From a virus: DNA of 64,000 bases. Location of the stretch: positions 11,875-75,874 of the IMG/VR virus record IMGVR_UViG_3300042452_000786. The stretch is one strand, 5' to 3'. The notes under the pieces are model-generated. The model was not told the DNA's origin and made no database searches. It saw only the letters and a list, made by a program, of their open reading frames with translations. Below, in pieces: positions 1,696 to 64,000 of this stretch. Made by a program: the position numbers and the translations under genes. Every line of letters begins with the position of its first letter. Within the stretch, counting starts at the first letter, position 1.

Positions 1696-1918
1696 TTACA
1701 TCAGCTTCTAGGTTTGCAAGCCTTTTAACCAGGCCACGAATCACTCCTTGACGGAGAACTGCTAAATGCAAAAGCTTCAACGCACCTAGCTTGATTTGTT
1801 CTATGTCAGTTACAGCTTCAATTTCTTTTGTGAGTTTTGCAATCAAAAACTCATCTTCAAGTGTTGACTCAAAGTTCATCGCGTCAAACGGAACTTCAGT
1901 CAGCTCAAACTCAGACAT
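1673..1918 (-). CDS. possible NblA-like helical-hairpin protein
   Basis: STLEDEF...L.KEI....D.EQI....LKLL.L...RQ..IR.L resembles the NblA L(S/T)LEQ.F pattern. Confidence 0.4.
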   Translation of the reverse strand: MSEFELTEVPFDAMNFESTLEDEFLIAKLTKEIEAVTDIEQIKLGALKLLHLAVLRQGVIRGLVKRLANLEADVIKTRYQN

Positions 1919-1986
1919 TGTCTTTGAGCATAATGCCCAGTCTACATAGTTCACGCCTTGCTTGTGTTACCACGTATACAAAAAAC

Positions 1987-2679
1987 ATGAACAGCGCACT
2001 CACTCTTGAATCCAGCAACGGTAAAACCGGTCCCATTGCAGTCAGCACAACCTCAAGAACTAGCTGTGCTCCAGGGTGCCCGCTGTCTGGTGTAAACGGC
2101 TGCTACGCAGAGGCTGGTTACTACACCAGGATGCACTGGGATGCTGTAACAGCGGGTACACGTGGTCAAGGTCCAGTAGATTTCATCAACCGCGTTGCTA
2201 CCCTGCCAGTCGGTTCATTGTTTCGTCACAACGTTGCTGGCGATCTGTGGCCTGGTGTCAGACCAAACCTGATCGATGGCGTCAGGCTCACCATGCTGGC
2301 TGAGGCTTCTCGTCACCTGACAGCTTGGACCTATACGCACCACGAAAGAAACCTGGAAAACCTGGCTGCAATCAGAGCTGCACTCCGCAGAGGGTTCACC
2401 GTCAACCTTTCGACCGAGTCCAAGAGGGATGCAGCCACCTTCTACAAGCGTGGTTATCCGGTTACCTGCGTCGTACCTGCGGATTCCCCCAGGTCGTTTA
2501 GGTACAAAGAGACTCTGTTCAGGCAGTGCCCAGCAACGGTAGAAGGCTCGACGGTAACGTGTGCAACTTGCGGTGGCGCTAAGGGTAAACCCCTGTGCTC
2601 CCTGGCAAACCGTAATTTTGTCATTACTTTTCCCGTCCACGGTTCCCGCTCGAAAGCTGCAGCGTTGCAGTGCAGTTGA
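1987..2679 (+). CDS. Cys-rich, radical-SAM-like phage protein (gp88/DUF7227-like)
   Basis: SN.KTG.I, C...CP......CYA, FRHNVAGDL, WTYTH, CP.......TC..C motifs. Confidence 0.6.
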   Translation: MNSALTLESSNGKTGPIAVSTTSRTSCAPGCPLSGVNGCYAEAGYYTRMHWDAVTAGTRGQGPVDFINRVATLPVGSLFRHNVAGDLWPGVRPNLIDGVRLTMLAEASRHLTAWTYTHHERNLENLAAIRAALRRGFTVNLSTESKRDAATFYKRGYPVTCVVPADSPRSFRYKETLFRQCPATVEGSTVTCATCGGAKGKPLCSLANRNFVITFPVHGSRSKAAALQCS

Positions 2680-2729
2680 CTCTCCGTTTGCAGTGCAGTT
2701 GACTCTCCGTTTGCAGTGCAGTTGACTCT
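2665..2729. repeat. 23-bp tandem repeat, about 2.8 copies
   Basis: TTGCAGTGCAGTTGACTCTCCGT at 2665, 2688 and 2711 (partial). Confidence 0.95.
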
Positions 2730-2776
2730 GCGGAGGAAAAACCTAGACTGTCACTGCAATCTCGCCTTGTCCTAGG

Positions 2777-2911
2777 ATGGCTAGCAAGTCCCTGAGCGGC
2801 TCACCACATAAAGATGGGGTGCCAAAACGCACCTCGATCGGTCACGGTCGACGTAAGCGCGGCTCATTCAAGGTCCGCAGCCAGAAGAAATACCGGGGAC
2901 AAGGTCATTGA
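2777..2911 (+). CDS. small basic protein, 44 aa (absent from ORF track)
   Basis: MASKSLSGSPHKDGVPKRTSIGHGRRKRGSFKVRSQKKYRGQGH; the KKYRGQG ending is a familiar small phage protein motif. Confidence 0.65.
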   Translation: MASKSLSGSPHKDGVPKRTSIGHGRRKRGSFKVRSQKKYRGQGH

Positions 2912-2928
2912 TTCTGAAACCACAACGT

Positions 2929-3126
2929 ATGTCTGACTCTTCTTCTTCTAGTTCTGGTGGAACTGGATTCATTGGTCTTTTGCAAGTTTTGTTTATCGGT
3001 TTAAAGCTGACCAATTACATTACTTGGCCATGGTGGCAAGTGCTTTTGCCAACCATCATTGGTTTATCTCTAGTTGGTATTCTTCTTTTGTTTGCGCTAC
3101 TTATTATTTATTTACCACGCAAATAA
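2929..3126 (+). CDS. small two-TM membrane protein
   Basis: SSSSSSGG.GF.GLL..LFI.LKL...I.W.WW.VL.P, common phage membrane protein pattern. Confidence 0.75.
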   Translation: MSDSSSSSSGGTGFIGLLQVLFIGLKLTNYITWPWWQVLLPTIIGLSLVGILLLFALLIIYLPRK

Positions 3127-3180
3127 AGTCCAACGGTCCTGGGCATGACCTAAAAAGGCTCACACACAACACCACCCACC

Positions 3181-4014
3181 ATGTCTACAGTTGTATCTCA
3201 ACTGACGACTGCACAACAGCTGATCTACAGCCGTACTCGCATCGTCAACTCCACATCAAGGATTAGCCCTGAATTGTATGGCAGCCTTGAACCCAGAGAC
3301 ATCCTTTCAATCTCCCTGCAAGGAGACAAAGTTCACTGCCTACTTGCAGATGGAGAGATTGCAGTTGATCGCTCAACTGTTATTGCCAACTTCTGGGAGT
3401 ACAGGACACGTACACCCTCGTTCTTTGACTACAAGATTTGGCGCCAGGTAGAAAATCCGGAGGGGTTTTCAGGTGTTGCAGTTGGTGCAATTAATTATTC
3501 AATGATTCCAAACCGCATTGCCGTTGATCGACACGGGGTCCGCAAGCTTTACTTTGTTAACGAAAACGAGAAGCTGTGCACCTGTGGTTCCTGGCAACAA
3601 CTTAATGAACACAAGTTGGAACTGGAAAAAGAGTTTAAAGAGCACGGTCAACGTTGCTTTGAACCTACCTGTAAGCACTTAAGGTGGGCTGAAGCCAACA
3701 CCAAGCTGCAGGCGCTGCGTTACCTGACAAAAGATAACAAGGGAGAATACAACCCACGGCTTTGTGTTTACACTTTTGATCACCGCCGTGGCATGCTTCT
3801 CTATCGCATCACCTATGACGGAGTAAAAAGTAAAGGTCAATGGTTTCCAGTTGAAGGCTGGAAAGAAAAAGAAGTCTATGGAAAGAGCGGTATTCCTAGC
3901 GGAGAATGCTGGGATACTTTCTTTTCTGCTCTAAGTCAGACTGAACCATTCAAGCTTGTCAAGTTTTCGCACGGTGTTGCAAGCTTGATGAACAGCACAC
4001 GTTCCAAAAACTGA
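3181..4014 (+). CDS. SWIM-type zinc finger protein
   Basis: CTCGSW...PTCKH motif. Confidence 0.55.
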
Positions 4015-10449: not shown

Positions 10450-13053
10450 GTGACGACAGCAACCCCGGAGCCACAGCGTCCAAGGAAAGGTCTCAAGCCT
10501 GGACAGATTGATCTCAGTCTGATACCGGTTGATTGGGCGCTTACTCCGCTGCGGGATAAGCGTGCATACGTTGCTGGTTGGACATCTCAACCTTTTTCCA
10601 TTGAGCAAATCCGCAAGGAGCTGGATGAAGGGCGTGCGACTGGGGTTGGCCTTCTGAGTGGACAGTGGTCCAATGAATACGCGCTTGTTTGGGTTGATAT
10701 TGATGGTCCGGATGCCATCCCAGCCTTAGAAGAGCTGGCTGGTGGTCAACTTGATGTTATTTTCCCGCCCACACTGACTGTTTCATCGGGTAAGCCCGGC
10801 AGGCAGCGGATGCTTTACAGCGTCCCGACAGCCAAAATTCCGCTGTTGCCGGATAAAGCAACAATCAAAATCGGAATTCCGTCGTTTGAAATCCTGTTTC
10901 GCTCCAGGCAAGGAGCAATCATGGGTGTCCATCCTGAAACGGAAGGATACTATACAACAACCCACGGTGGCTTTGAGTTTGCTAAGAATCCTCCGGAGCT
11001 GCCGGAGTGGATGTATGCCGCAATTGGTCGTGCTTTTCCCACCAACAAGTACCGCAAACCTGTAACCGGTGGTGTAGTAACTCAGAGCATCAACATTCAC
11101 TACGAGGATGGCTCTAAGTTCCAGATGGAAGAAGCCGTCAACGAGGCCAAGGTTTACCTGGAGCACCTTGACCTTGAACGGGCTATCGATTACGAAGAGT
11201 GGTTAGCCGTAGGTATGGCTCTCCACCAGGTGGATGATTGCTTGCTCAGTTCCTGGATTGAGTGGTCTGCTCAGGCAGAGAACTTTGAGGCGGGTGCTTG
11301 TGAAGATAAGTGGCGCACATTTGAACGGCTTCCAGGTGGTCCAAGTCCTGAAGGTGCTCGTGGTCTGCAGACGCTCAGGGCAAAGGCAAAGGAAGATGGT
11401 TACTTAGAGCTTGGTGGTTTTGTTGTTGAATCACCTGAAACTCTTGCACAGCGTGCTCAAGAATTGTTTGGTGAAGAAGGAGAAGGCGAAGAAGGTGCTT
11501 TTGTTCCTGGTATTGCTGGTCTTTTTCAACGGAACATGCGGCATCTTTTTGGTGGCCCTGATGAAGATGAGGAAGAGGAAATCAGGAGCACTGCAAAAGG
11601 ACGTGGTCGTCCAAAAACTCCACCGTCGTCGGAGCTGGCAAATCTTGTTACCGGAATGGTTAATGAGATTGGTTGGAGGTACGACCCCAAATACGACACC
11701 TTTATGTTCTACCACCGCGATCGTGGTATCTGGCGTCGTGAAGACTATGCTCAAGAATTTAAGCACACGGTTCAAGATCTGTTTATTCGTGAAGCAATCC
11801 CCACGCCAAGTGGTTTTACCTCTCACTTAATCAATGACGTTGTCAACCTGACTCAGGCGTACATCTCGCAGCCTGATTGGAATGACGACGACGACATGCT
11901 GGCTTTCAGTAACGGTGTCCTAGAGATCAGTACCGGTGAATTTTTGGACCACGACCAGGAAAACTACCTGACCTGGGGTTTGGATTTTGATTATGATCCC
12001 AGTGCTGACCCTGGTCCCATCATTGATTGGCTGCGTCGGACGCAATACAACGATGAGGATCGGGTCCAGGTGCTCAGGGCCTGGTTAAGAGCTTGTCTGC
12101 TTGGGCAAGGTCACGAGCTGCAGCGTTTCATGGAGGTCATTGGTCCGGGAGGTCGTGGTAAATCGACTTTTGCTAACCTCTGCTGTGCTCTTGTTGGCTC
12201 AGGCAATTACGCCAGTACAACGTTGAACCAGCTGGAGCAGAGTCGGTTTGAGGTGGCATCTATTAAAGGGAAGCGGCTGACACTGATCAATGACTCGGAA
12301 CGTTACGGCGGTTCTGCTCAAATCTTTAAGGCCCTGACCGGTGGTGACAATCTTCGCTTTGAAGAAAAGAATAAGAATGTGGGTGAACCGTTTGTGTACA
12401 CCGGCATGGTTATGGTCTGTGCCAACGAACCAATTCAAACTACAGACAATACTTCGGGTCTTACCAGGAGGAGGCTGACGCTTGAGTTTAATCGTCCCCT
12501 CTACGATAAAAACTCGGAAGCCAAAGAGATGATTAAGCTCGATAACGGTATTGTAAGAGGCTTATGGAAGAATTATTTACCCGGCTTGGTGAACTGGGTT
12601 CTGCAGATGACCGACAAAGAAATGCGGGAATATCTGTTGGATACTTATGACAAAGTCCCATCGTTGCGTCGCGTCAGGAATGAAATCCTACTGAACAGTA
12701 ACAACTTGATTGAGTGGCTGCAGTCAGAAGTTGTGCATGCTCCAGATCACACCTCTTCTGTTGGTAAGAAGATTCCAGCAGCAAAGGATGCTCCAGAGCG
12801 GTACAACAACAGCAATCACCACCTGTATGCAAGCTACTGTTCTTACGCGGAAGATACTGGTAGTAAGCCAGTGGGCCAGAAACGATTTATTGCTTTGCTG
12901 TTAGATTGTTGTGTCAACCAGCTTGGCCTGAAAGATGTGCGTCAGTTCAGCAAGCAAGGTCGTCCATTTATTAAAGGACTTGCTATCCGAGCTGGAGATA
13001 CCAAGTTTCAGGATTATCCGACTATTCTTCCTGAAGGAATGAAGGATTTGTAA
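10450..13053 (+). CDS. Prim-Pol/PriCT-2/D5-type SF3 primase-helicase
   Basis: WVDID, YEEW..VGMAL, F.NG.L, Walker A GPGGRGKST, K.LTGGD, motif C AN..RR. Confidence 0.92.
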   Translation: MTTATPEPQRPRKGLKPGQIDLSLIPVDWALTPLRDKRAYVAGWTSQPFSIEQIRKELDEGRATGVGLLSGQWSNEYALVWVDIDGPDAIPALEELAGGQLDVIFPPTLTVSSGKPGRQRMLYSVPTAKIPLLPDKATIKIGIPSFEILFRSRQGAIMGVHPETEGYYTTTHGGFEFAKNPPELPEWMYAAIGRAFPTNKYRKPVTGGVVTQSINIHYEDGSKFQMEEAVNEAKVYLEHLDLERAIDYEEWLAVGMALHQVDDCLLSSWIEWSAQAENFEAGACEDKWRTFERLPGGPSPEGARGLQTLRAKAKEDGYLELGGFVVESPETLAQRAQELFGEEGEGEEGAFVPGIAGLFQRNMRHLFGGPDEDEEEEIRSTAKGRGRPKTPPSSELANLVTGMVNEIGWRYDPKYDTFMFYHRDRGIWRREDYAQEFKHTVQDLFIREAIPTPSGFTSHLINDVVNLTQAYISQPDWNDDDDMLAFSNGVLEISTGEFLDHDQENYLTWGLDFDYDPSADPGPIIDWLRRTQYNDEDRVQVLRAWLRACLLGQGHELQRFMEVIGPGGRGKSTFANLCCALVGSGNYASTTLNQLEQSRFEVASIKGKRLTLINDSERYGGSAQIFKALTGGDNLRFEEKNKNVGEPFVYTGMVMVCANEPIQTTDNTSGLTRRRLTLEFNRPLYDKNSEAKEMIKLDNGIVRGLWKNYLPGLVNWVLQMTDKEMREYLLDTYDKVPSLRRVRNEILLNSNNLIEWLQSEVVHAPDHTSSVGKKIPAAKDAPERYNNSNHHLYASYCSYAEDTGSKPVGQKRFIALLLDCCVNQLGLKDVRQFSKQGRPFIKGLAIRAGDTKFQDYPTILPEGMKDL

Positions 13054-35351: not shown

Positions 35352-35435
35352 GGGAGCATGGCGGAATTGGTAGACGCAGCGGATTTAAAATCCGCAGGCG
35401 GCAACGCTGTGGGGGTTCAAGTCCCCCTGCTCCCA
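35352..35435 (+). tRNA. trnL: tRNA-Leu(UAA), intron-less, no encoded CCA
   Basis: Acceptor GGGAGCA/TGCTCCC, anticodon arm GCGGA-TTTAAAA-TCCGC, long variable arm, GTTCAAGTC. Confidence 0.95.
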
Positions 35436-35437
35436 TT

Positions 35438-35510
35438 GCTGGATTAGCTCAGTGGTCAGAGCACTCGCCTTGTAAGCGAGGGGCCGTCAGTTCAAATCTG
35501 ACATTCAGCT
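35438..35510 (+). tRNA. trnT: tRNA-Thr(UGU), no encoded CCA
   Basis: Acceptor GCTGGAT/ATTCAGC, anticodon arm CTCGC-CTTGTAA-GCGAG, GTTCAAATC. Confidence 0.95.
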
Positions 35511-48047: not shown

Positions 48048-50000
48048 TCAAACGATGGTGAAAGCTGCGGTGACGAAGTCCTTGTTCAGGTTGGCAAAGC
48101 CAGCGTACAGCTGCCAAATCAAGATGATAAAGCGGCTGAAGTCATCGTTGTTGTTGATGAGAACCTGAGCGTTGGGGCCACCGATGCCCACGCCAACGGC
48201 CTGAGGACCGAAGAACAGAGCAGGAGGAGTGTTGTGAGACACAGCGCCGAGACCGTCGCCAGTGTCCACAGTGATGGACTTGTCAGCAAAGTTGGTGGAC
48301 TCGAAGAAACGTACGCCTTCAAAGACAAAGCCAGAAGGCATGATCGGTTCACCAGCCACGAATTGAGCTTGGCCGTACTGACCGCCGCCATAGATGGAGG
48401 CGTTGGGAGCCATGGCACCCATAAGGGGGTTAGGCTGGCCCATGCCAGGGTAACGAGCCACTTCACGGAAACCTTGGTCAGCACGCAGATCCTTCATGAA
48501 AGAGGGATCAGCAATACAGCGGTAGTAACCGTCAGCAAAGACAGGCACATTGCGCTTGCGGAGTTGCTTGACAACTTCCAGAAGGTCAGTTTTGACGTTG
48601 AACTTATAACGCTCAGAAGCGTATTCTGTAGCGGAATAAGCAGTCAGCGTGGTAGAGCCAGTCTTGATCTTACCGTTGGGGTAGTAGTAACCACCTTGGG
48701 TGTCAGAAGAGGCACCACGAGCTTCCGATTTCGAAAACTCATCAAGGAACACACGATCGCGCCAGCGGCGATAGTCGTCTAGCAGGGTCAGCGAACCGAT
48801 GGACTGGTGGAACATGTTAAGGTTCCCGGTGTCCAGCAGCAGACGCTGAGCGGTCATCAGAGTCTCACGAGCAATTTTGAAAGTGCTCGGGAGGTTGGAG
48901 TTGTTCGGGTCGGCAGGACCAGTGTACTCACGCAGAGAGACGAGCACTTTGTCCTTAACGATGGAGCGGCTATTAGCCGTACCAATCGTTTGGTCTTGGG
49001 TACGCTCACGCTGAGTTTTGGTGCCGGGGTTGCCCCAGAAACGGTACCGGTCTAACTGAACAGTTTGACCAGGCTGTTTAGTGAAGTCGTGGACAACAAC
49101 AGGCTCGGCTGCCATTTCCACAATATAAGCCGGGTGGGGACGGTACAGCTCCGCGCCCAACAGCTTGGGAAAATCGTTCTCCTGATCTCCAGTCTCCTGA
49201 AGGGGTGGACTATCTCTTCACCCTGTAAGGGTGCCGGGCGCTAATGGCGTATTACGAATGAAGCGTCATTCACCGCCTAGTCTCTGCACCTTCCAACTAC
49301 GTACTTAGTTGGCTTGGCTCAGGATTACCCTCGACTTGACGTTAGGGCTTCCCTGAATTCACCCGGTTTTCACTGATCAGTTGCCTGATCAGGCGACAAC
49401 GTTGACTACTCAGCTAAGTCGTGTTAGGATTGGAATCAAGTTGTTTTTATACAACATGGAACCAAAACTTGTTCCTGGATTTGAAAACCTTTACTTGAGC
49501 TTTTCTGGGACTCCTTATCAAAAAATCAATGAAGACTTTGTTGAATTAAAGGTCAGCTCATCAAGCATGTACGACAGGGTTTCTGTTCTTAAAAATGAAA
49601 AGAAAGAAAGGCACCATGTACACGTTCTTATGGCTGTGACATTTTTAGATTTAGATTTAGCTTTACACGGAACCGGAAGTGCTTCTCTTCAAGTTGATCA
49701 CAAAGACGGAAACAAAAGAAACAATTCTCTTGAAAACCTTGAAGTTGTTACAAAAAGAGAGAATTACGATAGGGCGTTAAAAGCTGGGTGCTACTCTAAA
49801 AATGGTTACGCCAGTAAAGGTAGGCCAAAGAAAACATTAAGAAAGTTTTCGGAGGATGACATTGTGCAGATTAAAGAAATGAGATCAGACGGTCTTTCTT
49901 ATAGAAAAATTGCTGCTTACTTTAACTGCAATCACTTGGCCATTTATCAAATCTTAAAAGGAAAAACCTATCAGGATCTGAGTTAGCTATCGATAAACAT
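48048..50000 (-). CDS. major capsid protein (N4-gp56-like), spliced: join(complement 49989..50000, 48048..49178), 380 aa
   Basis: Position after portal and scaffold; G.TVQ..RY, GV.F.EST, ALFFG..A.G, D..R...L.W motifs; in-frame join gives MFID-NDFPKLLGAELYRP. Confidence 0.85.
49179..49988 (-). mobile_element. group I intron (810 nt, IC-type core)
   Basis: P AAUUCAGGGAA, Q AAUCCUGAGC, R GUGCAGAGACUA, S AAGAGAUAGUCC; exon ends in U, intron ends in G; P1 CGAU/AGC pairs with GUUGUCG. Confidence 0.92.
49456..49986 (+). CDS. intron-embedded HNH homing endonuclease, antisense to the host gene
   Basis: VH.L.A..F, VDHKDGNK.NN...NLE.VT..EN, C-terminal HTH. Confidence 0.88.
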   Translation: MEPKLVPGFENLYLSFSGTPYQKINEDFVELKVSSSSMYDRVSVLKNEKKERHHVHVLMAVTFLDLDLALHGTGSASLQVDHKDGNKRNNSLENLEVVTKRENYDRALKAGCYSKNGYASKGRPKKTLRKFSEDDIVQIKEMRSDGLSYRKIAAYFNCNHLAIYQILKGKTYQDLS

Positions 50001-50121
50001 GTTGGTAATTCAGCGTAAGTTTTAGCTGAAACCAGGATCTGGAGGATCCTTGGGTACAGTAGTTTCCGGTTTCCCGTAACCGCTGCTTGCCTGGAACTTC
50101 CGTCCCATTGAAAAAATTATA
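50001..50121 (-). promoter_or_regulatory. capsid gene promoter (TGC-TATAAT) and structured ~108-nt leader
   Basis: TATAAT at complement 50116-50121; three hairpins in the leader. Confidence 0.6.
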
Positions 50122-50152
50122 GCAACCCTTTATCAATCCAGATTATTTAAGT

Positions 50153-50416
50153 TCAGTAGTTGACCATATGCGGAGCATTGTGACCGGCAAGCATATTACC
50201 TGCTGTATATGACGTTGGAGCCATTGTACCGGTTGCTCGATAAGGATTGATGTAACCGTCTGCTGGTTGCAGTGAGATGGAAGAAGCTTGAACTTCAGGG
50301 TTAATTCCAGCGGTAGCACTCATCATGCCAAGGGCTGCTGCTGGATCTTCCTGTTGCGCAGTTTTTTTACGACCTTTTGATTTGCTAACTGCTTTTTTTG
50401 CTTTTGCTTTGTCCAT
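50153..50416 (-). CDS. hypothetical protein with basic N-terminus
   Basis: TGATG-coupled to the upstream gene. Confidence 0.6.
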   Translation of the reverse strand: MDKAKAKKAVSKSKGRKKTAQQEDPAAALGMMSATAGINPEVQASSISLQPADGYINPYRATGTMAPTSYTAGNMLAGHNAPHMVNY

Positions 50417-50946: not shown

Positions 50947-51948
50947 TCACTCCATCACCATCAGCTTCTGACGGAAAGCATCGGGAGATGCCATGTTCAG
51001 ATAGCGCCAGGCATTGGAAGGATCACGTTCGGCCAGAGCACCAAAACCGTTCCAGAAGTCAGCGGGGTTGCCCTGAACTTGGGGCTGCGGGGGAGCAGGC
51101 ATTTCAGGACGCTGAGGAGCCACAGGACGCTGGAACTGTTGACCAACGGCTTGAGGGGCACGGCTGTAACCAATTTCTTCATCGGGCACCGGATAGGGGC
51201 CATTTTCACCGAAAAACTCACAAGTGTAGTCAGCCAGGACGTCCGGATCGGTCAGGATGGTCTCATAGGAGCGGTGCTCGTTAGAGAGTTCCTGGAGCAG
51301 ACCAACAGCCTCAGTGAGCTGCTGGTTGGTAGCAATCAGAGCATCTTCTAACTGACACGCGTAGCTATTGAGAATAGCTGGCACGTCAGCACCGAAGTGA
51401 TCAATGACCTGAAGACTAGCTTCGCTTACCCCGCTTGCGCGGAGTTGGTCCGGGCTGATTTCCTGCGAAGTTTGGGAATAACCGTTGGAGTAAGCCTGGT
51501 TGTTGTTGATCCCAGGCATAGAGGTCGGCATCCCCGCGTTGTTGTACTGGGGAACCGGTTGGGAATTGTAGTTGACCGGTGCGACTTGTTGGTTCGCGCT
51601 CGATTGTTGACCCTGGAACGGGAATTGGACGGGCGAACTCAGGAGCCCCACTACCCGGTTGAATGCCTCCTTGTAAGGGTTCTCCGATTGTGGTGCTGTT
51701 TGTTGGGGCGCCAGGGATTCCTGGTGGTAGTACGGTGTAGGGCTGGATTGGTAGTTGCTGACCCCCATCTGGGCCTGCATTTGCGGGGCTGGGGCCACCG
51801 CTTGCTGGTAAGGCGCCACCCATTGGGGAGACGTTGCCACCGCCGGGGCCTGAGCCGCCGTCTGTGCTACCGGAGCCGCGTAGCTGATCGGCTGGGTCTG
51901 GGATACTTGGGGTACCGATTGGATCGGCGCTGCGGTATCGGCCTGCAT
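50947..51948 (-). CDS. putative capsid scaffolding protein
   Basis: AGAGGT RBS 5 nt before ATG; Q/P/A-rich N-terminus, central coiled coil, helical C-terminus; between portal and capsid. Confidence 0.65.
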   Translation of the reverse strand: MQADTAAPIQSVPQVSQTQPISYAAPVAQTAAQAPAVATSPQWVAPYQQAVAPAPQMQAQMGVSNYQSSPTPYYHQESLAPQQTAPQSENPYKEAFNRVVGLLSSPVQFPFQGQQSSANQQVAPVNYNSQPVPQYNNAGMPTSMPGINNNQAYSNGYSQTSQEISPDQLRASGVSEASLQVIDHFGADVPAILNSYACQLEDALIATNQQLTEAVGLLQELSNEHRSYETILTDPDVLADYTCEFFGENGPYPVPDEEIGYSRAPQAVGQQFQRPVAPQRPEMPAPPQPQVQGNPADFWNGFGALAERDPSNAWRYLNMASPDAFRQKLMVME

Positions 51949-53683
51949 AGGTTACCTCTTTTTGTAGGCTTTCGAGAGTTCGGTAAAGGAAGGGAGTGAG
52001 ATCTAATCTCGGATCCGCAGCCATCGGAAGATTGGGTTGCTGCGGATGTGGTGTTCGCATCTCTTGATTGATTAGATCAATAAATGCGGAGTAGGCCCTC
52101 TGTACTTCCCCTACCATTCGGAATGGGAAACCGGAGAGCATTCCCGCGATTTCGTCATCCGTTTTTGAAGGGAATAAATACTTCAGTGCTTCAATGCTAT
52201 CAACACCTAATTCTTGTAGGTTACGAGTAAAGATAGATTGGTTTAATTTGTCCTGTGCAGTATCTTCATAAACGGGTCCCATCCAGCGCCAGTTAACTAC
52301 CCGATCCCCGTCTGGCGCTAATCCAAGAACGCCATCAGGTACTTCTTTTGTTTCCAGGGCAGTGTCAATAGCTTTTTGAAGTTTTTTTTCATACGCTGCT
52401 TTTTGTTTGTCGTATTTAATTTGCGCAGCTTCGTCATTAGGATCTTCCGGAGGAGCCGGATATTTGATGCCGGAGGCGTACGCCAAAGACTTACGGAAAA
52501 TCTGTTCCTCCTGGAAGATCATTAATTCAAAACACTTGCACACTCCATAGGTATAAAGTTGTAAGCATTTTTTCTTTGCAGTAGCACTTACGCGTCCATA
52601 AGCTGATTTAATCTCCGTAGCTGTTACATTTGTAATGCTAAGGTCATCGATACCACCTAAAGCAAGCCGGATCTCATTACGAAGTTGTTCGGAATACCGA
52701 GCTTGATCAGAGCTAACAGCATTGGGAGTAATGAAGCCAACACGATCAGTTGGCTCCAGGTTTGCAATGACTCGTGGTACACGCATGCCACTACCTGGAC
52801 GCCCAATGTATCCAGGAGCCTGGCGACTTACGTTGTCTTGTTTGTACGTTGAACTTGAAAGAAAGAAGTCTGATTGGAATCCAGATTGACTGGAAATGCT
52901 GGGTCTCTGCGCAACATCATTGTCTTGGCTTTCAATAATGTCTTGCTTGGGGCGAGAAGAAAGAAGAGTAGGGTTGCCAAAGAATGAAAGGTTTGCTCTG
53001 ATATTTTTAACCATTTCATCGTGAGCAAGAATTTGATTGGATAACCACTCAAATTCACCTACACCTTCTGTGCCAAAAGCATCGGGATTGTTAAAGACTT
53101 CAATGCAAGGAATAAATTCCATTGTATTGATTACAGTCTTTTTTTCGGTTATACCAAACTCCATGTTTGGCATGTCGAATGTAATTTCTTGTTCGCTGTG
53201 GAACTCTTCGATTTCTGTAGCGGTAATGCGAAGCCGCATGTAACGCTTATCCGTATTTAAACCAACACCCTGGAAGCCACGCGAAGCTTTAACTTTGTAC
53301 GGATAAATGATGATAACTTCTTCTAGTTCACCTTCTGGAGAGTAATAGGTTCGATACGCGTCTTTATCAAACCAATAAAGGCGGTACGTTTTTTTGGTAG
53401 GACGTATATAGAAAAGACCTTTTCCGTAGCACAAGAATCGATCCCAAATGGAATCGAGCCTGGCATCGAGCTTGTTAAATTTGATGACTTGTTGAATGAA
53501 GTCAAACCGTTGAGTACCAAAATTATCTTGCTGCGGATAAAACTCAACTCCCTGACGCACCCCAAACATTTTCATTTGGGATAGGTGCGCATTAACCAGC
53601 ATGGTGTCAGCCGTGCCGGTACCATCGCGGTTTACGACGGCTTTGAGGATAGCGTCGAGTGCGGATTTACTACTATCGCTCAT
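51416..53683 (-). CDS. portal protein with long C-terminal extension
   Basis: Large ORF downstream of TerL; P...V.N......G..E, V.W.W.PV.E motifs. Confidence 0.7.
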   Translation of the reverse strand: MSDSSKSALDAILKAVVNRDGTGTADTMLVNAHLSQMKMFGVRQGVEFYPQQDNFGTQRFDFIQQVIKFNKLDARLDSIWDRFLCYGKGLFYIRPTKKTYRLYWFDKDAYRTYYSPEGELEEVIIIYPYKVKASRGFQGVGLNTDKRYMRLRITATEIEEFHSEQEITFDMPNMEFGITEKKTVINTMEFIPCIEVFNNPDAFGTEGVGEFEWLSNQILAHDEMVKNIRANLSFFGNPTLLSSRPKQDIIESQDNDVAQRPSISSQSGFQSDFFLSSSTYKQDNVSRQAPGYIGRPGSGMRVPRVIANLEPTDRVGFITPNAVSSDQARYSEQLRNEIRLALGGIDDLSITNVTATEIKSAYGRVSATAKKKCLQLYTYGVCKCFELMIFQEEQIFRKSLAYASGIKYPAPPEDPNDEAAQIKYDKQKAAYEKKLQKAIDTALETKEVPDGVLGLAPDGDRVVNWRWMGPVYEDTAQDKLNQSIFTRNLQELGVDSIEALKYLFPSKTDDEIAGMLSGFPFRMVGEVQRAYSAFIDLINQEMRTPHPQQPNLPMAADPRLDLTPFLYRTLESLQKEVTYAGRYRSADPIGTPSIPDPADQLRGSGSTDGGSGPGGGNVSPMGGALPASGGPSPANAGPDGGQQLPIQPYTVLPPGIPGAPTNSTTIGEPLQGGIQPGSGAPEFARPIPVPGSTIEREPTSRTGQLQFPTGSPVQQRGDADLYAWDQQQPGLLQRLFPNFAGNQPGPTPRKRGKRS

Positions 53684-53913: not shown

Positions 53914-55437
53914 TCAATACTCTAACTGCAGTGCGCCTCTGGTCATTAAGCCATTGCACAACCAAATTAACGCGTCAACGCAGTCGTCATGAGAGCTTAC
54001 ACCAAAGTTTACGATCTCATCTGTTAAAGCGCCAAATCTGCGAAACCTGTTAAAGATGATTTTACGCTGCTCAAACAAACCCATGATTCCTCTAAACCGC
54101 GCAACTTTATCCCCACGGAAACCTTTTACTGCATGCCAGTTCATGTTGTAAAGCCCGTGTTCGCCTAAACAAATTCGTTTAAAGTCTGCCTCCAGGGATG
54201 CTTGGTATGCGACGGCTTCTGACCAAATGTCAATGTGGCTTCCCGTTGGGAAGTATTGATTCTTATCTTTGTGGATGACGCCCCATTCTTCCATCATTTC
54301 CATTAAGGCTTCCAGTTTTTCTAGGTTGCCCATAATCCGGAGACGTTTGGAATCAATGATATGAATCTTGTCTCCGACACGCCCACCCATTACAAAAACG
54401 GTGTAGTCATTACGTTCTCGTACACCAGCGGAAAGATCGACGCCAACGCCAAGGGTGTCGAATTGTGTAGCGATGTTTCCTTTAACAATCAAATCTGGCG
54501 AAAGAGACAGCTCGCTGGTTTGAACAATTTGGTTTTGATACTGAAAGCTGAATGCAATGGGAGCTTGGCGACGCCTGTCTTGCAGGTATTCCAATGACCA
54601 CATTTCGGGCCAGTATGATTCTTCGTCTCCGTGCTCATCTACGGTAATTGCTGATTGAACGATTTGGACCCAATCATTAGCTGGAGTAAAAGTACTGTTG
54701 TGAATGTCGTCGTGCCGGAAACGTGTGCCAAGGCAAATGGCGCGTCCGCCTTCAAACATAGTAGGAACAATAACTGAGTTCCAGTTATCTTCCATTGCTG
54801 ATCGGATGTCGCGGTTTTTAATATCGTCGGCACTCTTAATAGCATCATCGATAATACACAGATGGGAACGCTTAGAGGTCACAGCACCTTTAAGACCAGC
54901 ACAACAAACAGTGAATTCTTCTTCACCTGTTGATTTAATGCCTGCAAATTTCCAATCAATACTCCAGTATTCATTGGAGTTAATTCCTTTGGCAATTTTT
55001 ACCATTGGAAAAACTTCTTTGTATGCTTTGCTTTCTTCAATAATTCGTTTAATGGCCGCGCTTTTGGGACGGGCAACATCAACGGTGTATGAGATATAGA
55101 GAATTTTTAACGGTTTTTTGTGCAGAGCGTGAACACCAACTGCCCAAGCAGTATAGAGACCTAAGATTGTTGACTTTGCTGAACCGCGAGGTGCCAGAAT
55201 GTCAATGTTTGGTCCACCAATGCCGATTAAACATTCAGTGCTTTCGTTAGTACAGAGATAACGGTGCCATTCTTTGTGATGTCGTGCTGGCGGTTTGTCA
55301 CCTACAACGTCACAAAAATAAGCAAAATCTGTACGTGCTCTTTCTATGTCAATATCTGTTGTTTTTTTAACAACGCGTTGCTGTGCTGCTGCACGAGCAG
55401 TACGACGGTAAACGGAATAAATGCTAGTGCCTGCCAT
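53914..55437 (-). CDS. terL: terminase large subunit
   Basis: Walker A APRGSAKST, Walker B CIIDD, GTRF..DD, nuclease GVDL..D.T and HDDCVDA. Confidence 0.93.
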   Translation of the reverse strand: MAGTSIYSVYRRTARAAAQQRVVKKTTDIDIERARTDFAYFCDVVGDKPPARHHKEWHRYLCTNESTECLIGIGGPNIDILAPRGSAKSTILGLYTAWAVGVHALHKKPLKILYISYTVDVARPKSAAIKRIIEESKAYKEVFPMVKIAKGINSNEYWSIDWKFAGIKSTGEEEFTVCCAGLKGAVTSKRSHLCIIDDAIKSADDIKNRDIRSAMEDNWNSVIVPTMFEGGRAICLGTRFRHDDIHNSTFTPANDWVQIVQSAITVDEHGDEESYWPEMWSLEYLQDRRRQAPIAFSFQYQNQIVQTSELSLSPDLIVKGNIATQFDTLGVGVDLSAGVRERNDYTVFVMGGRVGDKIHIIDSKRLRIMGNLEKLEALMEMMEEWGVIHKDKNQYFPTGSHIDIWSEAVAYQASLEADFKRICLGEHGLYNMNWHAVKGFRGDKVARFRGIMGLFEQRKIIFNRFRRFGALTDEIVNFGVSSHDDCVDALIWLCNGLMTRGALQLEY

Positions 55438-60634: not shown

Positions 60635-61080
60635 CCGATTTGCGTTCCTGATTCTCCGGGGAATTTACTTGCAGTTTGCGGACTTCTTTCGGAAGATCCT
60701 GCAGTAGCGTCTTGTGAGGAGATATACCTAAGTTTATCTGGACCTACCCTATCTTCTTCTGAAATTAAACCTCTTTCAACACCTTGGAGATAGCGATTTA
60801 AAAAACCTTGTGCAATAGTGTTGTCTGCTGGATCTTTAAAGTTGGGTTGACTCGTTCTTGATGCGTTATCAATCTTTACTTGAGATTGATCTGCAATGTC
60901 TTGAAAAAATCCGTTATCATAAAAACCTTTGTAGTCAGGGTTTTTATCTAGCTTACTTGCAAATGCGTTCTTAAATTGAACAGAGGCGTTTGGCCCTAGG
61001 GTTCCAGCATCTGGGTGGAAGCCGGATCTCCAAGCTTGGTCAGGAGGAGACGTGTAATCTTTTGAGAACGGTTGTCTCAC
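60631..61080 (-). CDS. hypothetical protein
   Basis: 4-nt overlaps at both ends. Confidence 0.55.
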   Translation of the reverse strand: MRQPFSKDYTSPPDQAWRSGFHPDAGTLGPNASVQFKNAFASKLDKNPDYKGFYDNGFFQDIADQSQVKIDNASRTSQPNFKDPADNTIAQGFLNRYLQGVERGLISEEDRVGPDKLRYISSQDATAGSSERSPQTASKFPGESGTQIG

Positions 61081-61277
61081 TGTTCTTTTTTCTTACGGAG
61101 TTTGCTTAAGGTTTTAGCAAGATTTGCTTGACGAACAGTTTTTTCGTCGTGTTTTTCTGGGTTAGCAGACACCTCGGCTGCATATTCTTTAACGCTTTTG
61201 CCAGCCGCTTCTGCTTTTTTGGTAAAAGCGCCAGGGTGTTTAATGGCGCCTTGAATCCATTTCTTATCTTCAGCCAT
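61077..61277 (-). CDS. small basic conserved phage protein
   Basis: KWIQ.AIK.PGAF, RQA.LA.TL.K. Confidence 0.7.
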   Translation of the reverse strand: MAEDKKWIQGAIKHPGAFTKKAEAAGKSVKEYAAEVSANPEKHDEKTVRQANLAKTLSKLRKKKEQ

Positions 61278-61286
61278 GGTTGGTAA

Positions 61287-61682
61287 TCAGAAAGGAAGAG
61301 AGTTTACTCTTTTGGCAATGCTGGCGGCAATTTGCATTTCAGGTACAAACGTAGAAGACCGTTCAAAACGCCTTACTTTGTCTGCGGCTTTTTGCGGAAG
61401 CCAAGCTTTGGCCATTTCAAAGGCTAAAGTCTTTACTTCGCTAGGAGTTAGTTTACCATCGGCAACAGTTTGGATGGCAAGTTCAAAAGCTGTATCAACT
61501 TGTGACCCTCTCCAGCCGTGAAGGTTTTGGTCAAGGATTGGGTCAATAATGTTGTAAGCTTTTTGGACTAGCGGGCCGTAACGAAGCAGTAACCTTGCTC
61601 CTCTGGTTTTATTGATTTGCATAGTCAAACCAGTAGCTGCAGCACCGATAGCAGCCGCAATGATGGGTTCCAGTAATTCCAT
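61287..61682 (-). CDS. N-terminal TM protein
   Basis: EPIIAAAIGAAATGL; AGAGG RBS. Confidence 0.6.
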   Translation of the reverse strand: MELLEPIIAAAIGAAATGLTMQINKTRGARLLLRYGPLVQKAYNIIDPILDQNLHGWRGSQVDTAFELAIQTVADGKLTPSEVKTLAFEMAKAWLPQKAADKVRRFERSSTFVPEMQIAASIAKRVNSLPF

Positions 61683-61759
61683 GACAACCTCTATTTGTTT
61701 TTAATTTAGCAGAAGGTGTCATTAGGACACCGAACCGAGGTGTTACCCTTGGTTTTGTT

Positions 61760-64000
61760 TCAGAACGGAACTCCGTTGTATTTGGTGTAGTCAAAGTGTG
61801 TTATACCAGGCTGGACCGGTTCATTTTCAACATTTAGCGATGGCTGATAAACAGCAGCTTTGGAAAGAGCTTTTTGCATTGCAGCGCGAAGATTCCGACC
61901 AGGGCGGGTGCCCATGTATTGTTCAGTAGCAACAGCTTCTTCCAGTGCTGGAGTAGAGCGAATTTGCGGTGCTACGCCTGCGCCAGGAATTACGAGCTGG
62001 GTTGGCTTGAATTCACGGTGAGTCACAACTGTTGCAGAAGCGGGCTCAAGTTGAATTGTTTGAGCAGCACTATTACTTTGCAGATCAGCGGGATCTCCCC
62101 AAATCCCAGCATGGATATGTGCACGCAAGAAGGATTGTTCTGCTGGTGTTGGAACACGCGTTGAAATTTTTTCCATTCTGGTTTTGTATGCGGTTTGAGG
62201 ATTAACATTTTGCGCAACGCCAGATGAAGCAATTAACGAATTAATTTTTGCTTCACGTGCACTACCTGGAGTTGGTAACGGCGTTTGTTCATCAGGATCT
62301 AACCAAAAACCTGTTTCTCTTTCTGCACGTGAAAAAGCGGGGCTTTTGTCAAAACGTGTTCCAAGAGTTGATCGGGCTCCACCACCAGGGCTTTCTAATG
62401 CCCCTGGCGCATAAACTAATCCTTCTGGAGTTTTAGCTTCTGGGAAAGCAGCAAGCAATCTTTCACGTTCAACGGGATCAAATGAAGCACGGTTAATAAC
62501 GTCTGCGGAAATGCCTTTAAACGTACGTCCTTCTTTACCCATAATGCGTTGCGGTTCAACTGTTTCACCTGAAATAGGTACAACGGAACCATGTGCAATT
62601 TCGGCAAGTCCGACGTCGCTGCCGGTCAAAATTTCTCCTGTATCTTTATGTCTGTAAAGAACAGTTTCTAAATCAAGCGGTGAACCAGAACGTGTGTGGC
62701 CATATTCAGATTCAAGTGATTCACGACGTCGTCCAACGCCACCAACTTCTTGGCGGCCAGCGCCACCAGCTGCACGCATGCGATACAACTCAGGGGTTGC
62801 AACTGCTTTTTCAGCCGGAACAGCGGACATGCCTACAACATCGCCAGTTGTTTGGCTGACGATAGGAGCCATTTTTGTTCCTTGTTGAATTTCTTCTGGG
62901 ATGGAGAAAAGAACAGGCATATCTTTTGCTCGATTTAAACGAGTTGTTGCTTCAGTCCAATCACTGTGCGCATCCATTAAAACTTGTCGTTGCGCTTGAG
63001 GAAGTTGATTGAACATGTTGTTTGTAATTTTGTCAGTCGGTTCTTTTCCAAACTGCTTTAAAATCCCTGCTTTTACATTGTTTAGTGTAGTCTGCTTGCC
63101 AATTGCAATATTTTCAAGAGCTTGAACTTGCGTCGGGTTTGTTGTTATAAACTCATTTGCGCTAGGTTCGCCAGCACCAACAACACCAAACGGTTTAAAG
63201 AAACTTTTTGTTGGAACAGTTTCGCCGCCAGGGAGTGTGACATTCAAGGGAAGCGCACGTTGTCCAGCCGCTTCTAACAGCTTAGGATCTTCTGTGATGT
63301 CGTACAGACCTGTAACTTGTTTTAAGAAAGTAAGTGCACGCGGGTCTGTTTCGGCTTCAAGTCCTGCTGCTTTACGTTGTTGAGGTGTACCCTCAATTTG
63401 CATCTTGAGTGCAGCAAGTTGTGGCGCTGCTTCTGCTAAACGTTCTTGCCTTGCAATTTCACGTTGTTGTTTTGCTTGCTCGACCCAACCAGCTTTTCCT
63501 CCCAAGTAACCTTGAACTTTGCCGAGAACGCTTTGTTCGCCAGCGGTAACAACACGTGGATCAATTGTGCTTGATTGACGCCAAATTTCACTTGCAGGAG
63601 CATACTCTTCTCCGCTTACCAGGGAAGAGTAACGGCCTTCGGGATAAACTCCTTGTGCTTCACGTGTTGCAATAGCAGCTTCAATATCTCGTGCGCCAGC
63701 TAGACGTGTAACTTTAGGTGTTAAGAATGCGCCAGTAATATCCCGTTGCTCTGCAGGACCTATTTCACCTGGATAAAATTGTTGTTCAACTGTAGCTGTT
63801 TCCCGGCTTGGACCTTCACCTTGGATACGGACTAAACTACGTCCGCCTAATTTAGGTGCAGGTACTTCCCCGTGGTGAACAATTCGACCGGAGCCAGAAT
63901 AGCCGATGTTTCTTGCGGGAATGTCTAATTGTTCTTTGACTGTTGGGTTTAAATCTGATGTTTGTTGAAAAGGAGAATAAGTAGGAACAGCAGGGGTGTA
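61760..64000 (-). CDS. large hypothetical protein, 5' truncated (over 746 aa)
   Basis: I read the frame from 63505 to 64000 and found no stop. Confidence 0.7.
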   Translation of the reverse strand, partial: YTPAVPTYSPFQQTSDLNPTVKEQLDIPARNIGYSGSGRIVHHGEVPAPKLGGRSLVRIQGEGPSRETATVEQQFYPGEIGPAEQRDITGAFLTPKVTRLAGARDIEAAIATREAQGVYPEGRYSSLVSGEEYAPASEIWRQSSTIDPRVVTAGEQSVLGKVQGYLGGKAGWVEQAKQQREIARQERLAEAAPQLAALKMQIEGTPQQRKAAGLEAETDPRALTFLKQVTGLYDITEDPKLLEAAGQRALPLNVTLPGGETVPTKSFFKPFGVVGAGEPSANEFITTNPTQVQALENIAIGKQTTLNNVKAGILKQFGKEPTDKITNNMFNQLPQAQRQVLMDAHSDWTEATTRLNRAKDMPVLFSIPEEIQQGTKMAPIVSQTTGDVVGMSAVPAEKAVATPELYRMRAAGGAGRQEVGGVGRRRESLESEYGHTRSGSPLDLETVLYRHKDTGEILTGSDVGLAEIAHGSVVPISGETVEPQRIMGKEGRTFKGISADVINRASFDPVERERLLAAFPEAKTPEGLVYAPGALESPGGGARSTLGTRFDKSPAFSRAERETGFWLDPDEQTPLPTPGSAREAKINSLIASSGVAQNVNPQTAYKTRMEKISTRVPTPAEQSFLRAHIHAGIWGDPADLQSNSAAQTIQLEPASATVVTHREFKPTQLVIPGAGVAPQIRSTPALEEAVATEQYMGTRPGRNLRAAMQKALSKAAVYQPSLNVENEPVQPGITHFDYTKYNGVPF

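Follow-up and report, generated by a model that had tools for sequence, protein, structure and literature searches.

In the major capsid gene of mycobacteriophage LittleE, an intron of ~810-820 bp carries a homing-endonuclease-like open reading frame (ORF) on the bottom strand, and its splicing was proved by reverse transcription-PCR (RT-PCR) and N-terminal sequencing (PMC3706429). IA-type introns in phage DNA polymerase genes encode the HNH nicking enzymes I-HmuI, I-HmuII, I-BasI and I-PfoP3I (PMC3428280). These introns are hosted by SPO1, SP82, Bastille and the cyanophage Pf-WMP3, I-HmuI being the enzyme of the SPO1 polymerase intron (PMC3428280). In Didymium iridis, the group I intron Dir.S956-2 contains the antisense gene of I-DirII, which has its own promoter (PMC3073962, PMC3679873). 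The locus considered here lies in a 64,000-nucleotide (nt) stretch of viral DNA, positions 11,875 to 75,874 of the IMG/VR record IMGVR_UViG_3300042452_000786 (the whole stretch is called the window below). Its major capsid gene very probably harbours a composite mobile element, in which a self-splicing group I intron is combined with a homing endonuclease gene running antisense to the capsid gene. The class of the intron, its junction and pairings, the integrity of the endonuclease ORF and the purifying selection on it, the patchy distribution of the element and tracts resembling co-conversion are directly supported by the data.

The intron occupies 49179..49988 on the minus strand, is 810 nt long, begins with AGC UAA and has the omega-G 49179 as its last base. 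It divides the capsid gene into an exon 1 of only four codons and 12 nt (49989..50000, -; ATG TTT ATC GAT, MFID) and an exon 2 of 376 codons plus stop (48048..49178, -), which opens at 49178 with AAC GAT TTT CCC AAG in frame with a 370-codon ORF. On the RNA, the end of the intron reads ...GGAGAUCAGGAG, directly followed by AAC GAU UUU CCC AAG. The splice junction was set between 49989 and 49988 and between 49179 and 49178 because intron-less alleles read MFID-NDFPK without interruption (MFID-TDFPK in Synechococcus phage S-EIVl). A scan of IMG/VR yielded 597 related capsid stretches; the best 80 of the 597 were inspected, and 78 of these reach the N-terminus. Seventy-three of the 78 are intron-less and have ATG/GTG TTY ATH GAY followed directly by AAY GAY TTY CC, while five bear an intron ending ...CAGGAG at the same junction. 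An earlier note on this DNA, made from the letters alone, had proposed the four-codon exon and predicted that intron-less homologues would start with MFIDNDFP. The exon is confirmed on the sequence and agrees with the intron-less alleles, and all 73 intron-less loci among the 78 informative close ones have the predicted start. The nearest cultured phage, S-EIVl, shows 70% DNA identity across exon 2; its capsid homologue starts GTG TTC ATT GAT ACC GAC TTT CCT AAG and has no intron. Representatives at 45-50% identity still start with MFIDE, MFNETDFP or MTFIDNQFP.

Gene callers were also expected by the earlier note to truncate this gene. Indeed, the mechanical ORF list starts the capsid ORF at TTG 49160 (370 codons), and the S-EIVl homologue is wholly unannotated. 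The latter gene (KJ410740.1 ~60859-62010; L001 2487-3638, +) has a GTG start, encodes 383 amino acids (aa) and begins MFIDTDFPK. At this locus, KJ410740.1 annotates instead an opposite-strand coding sequence, AHV82227, and a 3' fragment, AHV82228.

The identity of the capsid protein was taken from PHROGs and the predicted fold, since Pfam gave no match for this protein or its neighbours. The protein matches PHROG 1357 'major head protein' at 3.5e-16. An AlphaFold model built from 37 diverse homologues reached a predicted local distance difference test score (pLDDT) of 81 and a predicted template modelling score (pTM) of 0.82. In Foldseek, the best matches of the model were the HK97-fold capsids of cyanophages P-SCSP1u and Pan3, followed by those of Ralstonia GP4, T7 and N4, with E values of 1e-13 to 1e-9 against solved podophage capsids and a probability of 1.00. 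Upstream of the gene are the large terminase (53914-55437), the portal (51416-53683) and small head-module ORFs. By its predicted structure, the interrupted gene encodes an HK97-fold major capsid protein. The element sits in an S-EIV1-like freshwater cyanophage.

The ribozyme core was recognized by Infernal with the Rfam model RF00028 at 49186..49426 (-), over the whole model length, with 93.7 bits and E 1.8e-24; the curated gathering threshold of this model is 50 bits. This was the sole intron found in the 64-kb window. Relatives of the intron, labelled here by locus, scored 102.4 bits (L144), 91.2 (L003) and 82.6 (L101). On the minus strand, the core consists of P2 (49392..49373), P3 (49366..49360 / 49240..49234), P4 (49356..49351 / 49324..49319), P5 (49347..49344 / 49331..49328), P6-P6a (49318..49288), P7 (49282..49278 / 49212..49208, forming a pseudoknot with P3), a P7.1-type hairpin (49277..49246), P8 (49233..49219) and P9 (49202..49187). 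Covariation was counted on a hand-drawn structure of 75 pairs, including P1, the loop-closing helix P1a described below, P2-P9, the P7.1-type hairpin and the P7 pseudoknot, in 17 distinct variants. L003 was left out for P1 and P1a, as MAFFT misplaced its 5' end, and its pairing was read directly. The proposed pairs were formed in 99.8% of cells, versus 27-42% when the partners were slid by 1-3 columns. Compensatory changes were found in 12 pairs (six in P2, two in the P7.1-type hairpin and one each in P1a, P3, P8 and P9), versus 4.8 +/- 1.4 in shuffles, none of 500 shuffles being as high. The core is 90-99% identical among the HNH-bearing variants aligned and 80% identical in L101. The sequence and its covariation thus identify a group I intron whose core helices include the P3/P7 pseudoknot, as the earlier note had read from the intact core.

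Phage introns of subgroup IA2 have extra P7.1/P7.2 helices between P7 and P3' (PMC3428280). In the window, this segment (49277..49246) folds into one 32-nt hairpin with an internal loop, not into two separate hairpins. The ribozyme may be subgroup-IA-like. At its start, AGC-UAA gives an in-frame stop on the unspliced capsid RNA, and every variant has an in-frame UAA or UAG immediately 3' of the 5' splice site. Separately, intron bases 13-19, UCCUGAU (49976..49970, -), are complementary to AUCAGGA (49186..49180, -) just 5' of the omega-G, and this pairing would place the 3' splice site beside P1a. Both segments are nearly invariant, one of them being also HNH coding, so that they are beyond a covariation test; the segment is absent from the 230-nt mini-intron.

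The helix that defines the 5' splice site is formed over a long distance. The P1 5' strand CGAU-AGC (49986..49992, -), with the splice after U 49989, pairs with the internal guide GUUGUCG (49400..49394, -) in seven pairs, with a U·G at the splice site. The two strands are 585 nt apart; the earlier note, which had proposed the same pairing and wobble, gave ~590. GUUGUCG is invariant in 17 aligned variants and reads GUUGUCA in L129, where exon 1 ends AUU GAU; the two differences make a compensatory change from C-G to U-A at the P1 -4 pair. A natural mini-intron of 230 nt in L144 has only AGCUAAC-GUUGUCG as its 5' part and forms P1 as a plain hairpin. There, the Rfam P1 with its conserved U·G falls on AUCGAU-AGC-UAAC-GUUGUCGCC, the U·G being at the last exon base. 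The HNH-bearing introns have this P1 of L144, with ~585 nt inserted in the loop. The suggested P10 is possible as well: CGUU (49401..49398, -) can form 4 bp with AACG of exon 2 (49178..49175, -), and the terminal G is present at 49179. C 49401 is U in L087 and L090, and P10 is weakened to wobble pairs in L087, L090 and L129. A local P1 next to the core, which the Rfam model places in the window by pairing ACGACUUAG with CAACGUUGU, was rejected. It has two non-standard pairs; the true P1 was sought away from this hairpin because it shows U-C where the U·G belongs. An alternative exon 1 from ATG 49457..49455 (-), reading MLYKNNLIPILTRLS and then a stop, was also rejected, as it gives no in-frame omega-G junction and matches no homologue N-terminus.

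The base of the P1 loop is closed by the further helix P1a, with the 5' strand ACUCAG (49978..49983, -) and the 3' strand CUGAGU (49408..49413, -). P1a (49983..49978 / 49413..49408) closes a loop of 565 nt across the HNH gene. The complement of its 5' strand gives the last two HNH codons, Leu-Ser, and its 3' strand falls between the -35-like and -10-like parts of the HNH promoter-like element. The helix covaries: ACUCAG/CUGAGU in the window is replaced by GCUCAG/CUGAGC in L003, L086 and L136, by GCUUAG/CUAAGC in L131 and by GCUCCAC/GUGGAGC in L101. The minimum-energy fold of the L003 mini-intron recovers P1a along with P2-P9.

The HNH gene (49456..49986, +; 176 aa, from ATG 49456 to TAG 49984-49986) lies inside the P1/P1a loop, wholly within the intron and on the opposite strand, and this holds for every 802-810-nt variant examined. 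Its stop is 2 nt short of the 5' splice site. One hexamer gives both AGC-UAA, the stop in the capsid sense, and TAG of the HNH gene on the other strand. The complete opposite-strand ORF described in the earlier note is thereby borne out, with a Pfam HNH_3 match of 5e-11 (42.4 bits versus a cut-off of 24.8). The product also matches PHROG 59 at 5.5e-24 and aligns over residues 2-134 to I-HmuI (PDB 1U3E) with E 2e-6. At the C-terminus, residues 129-168, helix-turn-helix matches are weak: HTH_38 with 22.2 bits (1e-4; cut-off 27) and HTH_7 with 18.4 (cut-off 23.8). The catalytic DH...N...N motif, QVDHKDGNKRNN...N, aligns with that of I-HmuI and is kept in the aligned variants, L101 and L129. None of the 802-810-nt intron variants examined has a disrupted ORF, and some start it with GTG. 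Pairwise ratios of nonsynonymous to synonymous substitution (dN/dS) are 0.08-0.18, with dS above 0.6 and at or near saturation, among variants of 59-100% aa identity. Since dN/dS is low at near-saturated dS, selection has kept the reversed gene protein-coding, and its layout is old. The guanine-cytosine (GC) content of the ORF is 35-37%, versus 52-56% on either side, the ribozyme core included, and 51-56% for the ribozyme and the capsid gene. Relatives in cultured phages are at most 33% identical. The product is predicted to be an I-HmuI-like HNH homing endonuclease.

Upstream of the HNH gene, a candidate promoter (49402..49430, +) consists of TTGACT, a spacer of 17 nt and TG-T-TAGGAT, with the extended -10 at 49422-49430. 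The TGn-TAGGAT of the earlier note is hence present and preceded by a -35-like hexamer, and it is promoter-like only. The hexamer falls in the joining segment beside the guide, and the P1a 3' strand falls in the spacer. Its conservation says more than the motif match itself: diverged variants all retain TGnTAnnnT at this position, with differing letters (TGCTATAGT, TGCTATGCT, TGCTACAGT, TGCTAACTT, TGCTACTTT and TGCTATACT). The capsid leader (50001..50124, -) carries a candidate extended -10, TGCTATAAT (50124..50116), convergent with the candidate HNH promoter; TGnTATAAT occurs no more than 160 nt from the capsid ATG in 55 of the 78 relatives. If both elements are used, the capsid and HNH genes would be transcribed convergently, with the HNH RNA complementary to the leader, exon 1, P1 and P1a. 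At 12 nt, exon 1 is so short that a ribosome starting translation would sit on the 5' splice site and the P1 5' strand; on the unspliced RNA, initiation should then compete with P1 formation.

Two further features of the leader were observed. A conserved hairpin, UCAGC-n9/10-GCUGA, ends 8 nt 5' of the ATG. A direct repeat, CAGGATCTG(G)AG, is found at 49972-49983 and 50032-50044 (+), either side of exon 1; one copy forms the end of the HNH coding sequence, and the second is part of the capsid leader, where the capsid strand reads AGATCCTGG. The leader copy is present in six inspected intron-bearing leaders with P1a and absent from the L144 mini-intron leader and from the inspected intron-less leaders L002 and L044.

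Relatives of the intron were sought with the HNH protein and a 25-nt core word. About 27 intron-bearing contigs were found, all with the intron at the codon-4 site. HNH-bearing introns of 806-810 nt occur in more than 20 contigs and fall into several lineages, in which the HNH protein is 73-100% identical to that of the window; in L129 the open frame has 195 aa. L101 adds an 802-nt intron with an HNH protein 59% identical, a capsid 69% identical and exon 1 ATG TGG ATC GAT. Introns without an ORF measure 268 nt (L003, L136), 271 nt (L143) and 230 nt (L144). The 268- and 271-nt forms have differing deletion junctions and still contain the initial ~30 bases of the intron, whose complement encodes the C-terminal end of the HNH protein. 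These forms represent at least three independent losses of the HNH gene. The allele of the window is almost complete in 14 lake-water DNA runs. Empty, intron-plus-HNH and HNH-less alleles coexist at one site, and their distribution disagrees with the phage phylogeny.

A maximum likelihood tree was built from the distal 830 nt of exon 2 in 87 rows, and its well-supported branches force at least 11 changes of intron state. Near-identical backbones with different intron states are L002/L088, L044/L099, L039/L096 and L035/L034. The empty L002 and the intron- and HNH-bearing L088 show 100% identity between -201 and -1200, and 98.5-100% in the 2 kb that follow the site. Their identity is only 40-69% in the 200 nt that precede it, and nucleotides 6, 9 and 12 of exon 2 differ. 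In its leader, L099 shares 98% identity with L031, which bears the intron on a different backbone, but 48% with its intron-less sibling L044. Such a tract is the pattern expected of endonuclease-initiated gene conversion and would reflect co-conversion mainly of the capsid leader.

Other elements were noted near the site or in relatives. In L101, a second, ORF-less group I intron (Rfam 65.7 bits) follows approximately codon 36 of the capsid gene, and a LAGLIDADG_2 ORF (Pfam 3.4e-8), antisense to the capsid gene too, lies just upstream; the coordinates given for L101 are 1836-2135 (-), 2235-3036 (-) and 2958-3845 (+). The 5' end of the capsid gene looks like a hotspot for homing elements. In L102, a 33%-identical HNH gene (2501-2968, +) is found just upstream of a group I core (3260-3589, +; 60.7 bits) and on the same strand; its sense orientation, within the 5' portion of an intron, is the usual one. 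Elsewhere in the window, 35352-35510 (+) holds two adjacent tRNA genes (Rfam 63 and 71 bits).

From the sequence we infer self-splicing, the use of the promoters, and the activity and target of the endonuclease, in the following way. On the capsid RNA, the guide GUUGUCG would pair with a segment 585 nt upstream that spans the 5' splice site, with four bases from exon 1 and three from the intron, and the 6-bp P1a would clamp the base of the P1 loop. After guanosine attack, the guide bases CGUU would align exon 2 through P10, the intron ending with omega-G 49179 would be released, and the spliced mRNA would read MFID-NDFPK. Ribosomes on unspliced RNA would halt immediately at AGC-UAA. The HNH gene would fill the P1 loop, from the promoter-like element straddling the P1a 3' strand to the stop overlapping P1, and would be transcribed by the host RNA polymerase toward the capsid promoter. 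During co-infection, its enzyme would nick or cut intron-less capsid alleles, and repair would copy the intron in along with ~200 bp of the capsid leader.

Splicing was also looked for in RNA, and no direct proof of it was obtained. Six public RNA runs contained 5-13% of the sampled words each, and four of them were examined for contigs. One contig, X18, joins 49177 to 49988 and skips 810 nt; it mismatches the window at 24 of 259 positions (~91% identity). The loose ends of X16 read ATCAATAAACAT, which corresponds to the ATT-GAT exon 1 typical of intron-less alleles. In view of the identity of X18 and of ATT-GAT in X16, these contigs are most readily taken as transcribed from relatives that lack the intron, and they are evidence neither for nor against splicing. 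No contig over the intron or the HNH gene was found in the four runs, a result that is uninformative as the genotype of the window is not demonstrably in those runs. Parts of exon 2 (48650-49180) are matched at 90-100% by metatranscriptome contigs from freshwater, lakes and aquaculture. Capsid genes of this phage group are thus present in RNA libraries of several studies, with DNA carry-over being possible.

Several points weigh against a mobile, self-splicing composite element. P1 is invariant in 16 aligned variants and hence uninformative, its support coming from L129, L144 and the N-termini of homologues. X18, the one RNA contig with exon 1 joined to exon 2, may come from an intron-less relative. 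A promoter scan found one sigma-70-like site in 49100-50300 versus 1.6 expected in shuffles, which is no better than chance, and no Shine-Dalgarno sequence is visible for either the capsid or the HNH gene. The activity and the target of the endonuclease are putative. A divergent leader next to the site could equally arise from co-adaptation of leader and intron, and chimeric metagenome assemblies could inflate the apparent gains and losses.

An intron that does not splice would leave two outcomes: the genomes are defective, or the capsid is made from an internal start such as TTG 49160 and lacks its first ten residues. The TTG-initiated 370-codon ORF does exist, and splicing in the window is deduced from sequence. 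This reading is nevertheless hardly credible, because compensatory changes maintain the ribozyme helices across lineages, exon 1 and the leader are kept 230-810 nt upstream in every intron-bearing allele, and the N-terminus MFID-NDFPK is conserved down to ~45% identity. Moreover, intron-bearing contigs come from many samples, the 14 lake metagenome runs with the window's allele included. The HNH gene could instead be a passenger that invaded the P1 loop of a resident intron and no longer drives mobility, with the patchiness arising from recombination and deletion. The GC difference between the ORF and the ribozyme and capsid suggests separate origins, the HNH gene was deleted at least three times, and the mini-intron of L144 sits in a leader of the intron-less type. 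The passenger reading is nonetheless very unlikely. The gene has a dN/dS of ~0.1 over saturated dS, and its DH...N...N motif is intact and its promoter-like element conserved in all 802-810-nt variants examined. Moreover, pairs of nearly identical backbones are in different intron states, and their divergent tract is sharply delimited right at the site, which is what gene conversion started by an endonuclease would produce.

Two extensions of the composite mobile element concern its regulation. The earlier note had suggested that homing and capsid expression are temporally exclusive, which is speculation. In its full form, an HNH transcript would block splicing or capsid translation early, strong late transcription of the capsid gene would silence the HNH gene, and the two would be separated in time. 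The promoter-like elements do face each other ~690 nt apart (49402-49430, + / 50124..50116, -), no plus-strand terminator is seen between the HNH stop and the candidate capsid promoter, and the layout is old and stable, with dS above 0.6 and the same arrangement in L101 at 69% capsid identity. In cyanophage S-PM2, the region of the psbA intron is reported to be covered by an antisense RNA. Yet the argument is one of geometry read from sequence. Both elements look like host sigma-70 extended -10 elements and give no hint of separate timing classes, the phage can do without such a switch since ORF-less and intron-less alleles are common, and the antisense orientation may merely keep ribosomes out of the ribozyme. 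A temporal switch is accordingly judged unlikely; the facing extended -10 elements would indicate a potential for antisense interference, not timing. It is likewise rather doubtful that co-adaptation has joined the ribozyme, the reversed HNH cassette and the capsid leader into a single mobile unit, in which convergent transcription couples endonuclease expression inversely to capsid transcription and splicing. This idea draws on the candidate HNH promoter around the P1a 3' strand, the shared stop hexamer and the ~200 bp of leader travelling with the intron. If true, the unit would have a built-in control of timing or dosage for a homing endonuclease in the most highly expressed late gene.

Annotations misrepresent the major capsid gene in a widespread lineage of freshwater cyanophages: the gene is truncated when it bears the intron and left out altogether in the type isolate S-EIVl, and this affects its use as a marker and in proteomics. 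The locus also offers an unusually complete natural data set on the life cycle of a homing intron, all at one site. It spans empty sites, diverged intron-plus-endonuclease lineages, three losses of the endonuclease, a minimal intron and near-isogenic pairs with a conversion-like tract. As a tractable bacterial-virus model, it could be used to study how a backwards endonuclease gene inside a ribozyme is expressed without wrecking the splicing of an essential gene with high expression. The expression of such genes has so far been studied mainly in slime-mould rDNA.

The literature searched, with incomplete coverage, contained no report of this intron at codon 4 of the capsid gene. The kind of element is already known: group I introns have been described in structural genes of phages, and antisense endonuclease ORFs are present in the LittleE capsid intron and in Didymium I-DirII. 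The arrangement is rare, but less unprecedented than the earlier note implied, given the ORF in the LittleE capsid intron (PMC3706429). The rV5 terminase intron was considered as a second antisense precedent and discarded, as its HNH gene is on the sense strand. The similarity to LittleE includes the major capsid gene of a phage as the host gene, a U closing exon 1, a G closing the intron, an ORF opposite to the capsid gene and a related ORF-less intron elsewhere, 265 bp long in the case of LittleE (PMC3706429). The LittleE ORF is LAGLIDADG-like, whereas that of the window is of the I-HmuI HNH type. The LittleE intron was called 'unclear, most likely group I', while the class is firm here by Rfam and covariation. 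In LittleE, the insertion is not at codon 4, and the position of the ORF in the fold and its promoter are undescribed. In the present locus, the P1 loop that holds the ORF is closed by a helix with covariation, and gains, losses and conversion-like changes of the flank are seen at the population level. Conversely, splicing was demonstrated experimentally for LittleE and is deduced here from sequence.

With I-HmuI, the enzyme shares its small size (176 aa versus 174 aa) and the HNH family, and Pf-WMP3, like the present host, is a freshwater cyanophage. I-HmuI, I-BasI and I-PfoP3I are encoded in the sense direction by ORFs that extend into core helices (P6a-P7.2 in Pf-WMP3), and their introns reside in DNA polymerase genes (PMC3428280). 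The HNH gene of the window is, in contrast, antisense, confined to the P1 loop and hosted by a capsid gene, and nicking by its product is presumed. Dir.S956-2 resembles it in having an antisense endonuclease gene in a peripheral loop, P1 being among the known insertion sites (PMC3073962, PMC3679873). Dir.S956-2 and other nuclear rDNA introns encode His-Cys box enzymes and employ a Pol II promoter, a spliceosomal intron and a poly(A) tail; the present intron is found in a phage protein-coding gene and has an HNH enzyme and a bacterial-type promoter-like element. The ribozyme core is 69.5% identical over 186 nt to the annotated psbA intron of S-CBWM1 and 83.5% identical over 103 nt to an unannotated stretch of phage S-SRM01. 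The psbA introns of cyanomyoviruses likewise tie introns and endonucleases to cyanophage genes, but they differ in the host gene and in having a sense or free-standing endonuclease; S-PM2 is said to carry the free-standing F-CphI. New in the present element are the host lineage and site, the antisense placement of an enzyme of the HNH family, the loop-closing helix that covaries and has a promoter-like element wrapped around it, and the view of the alleles across the population.

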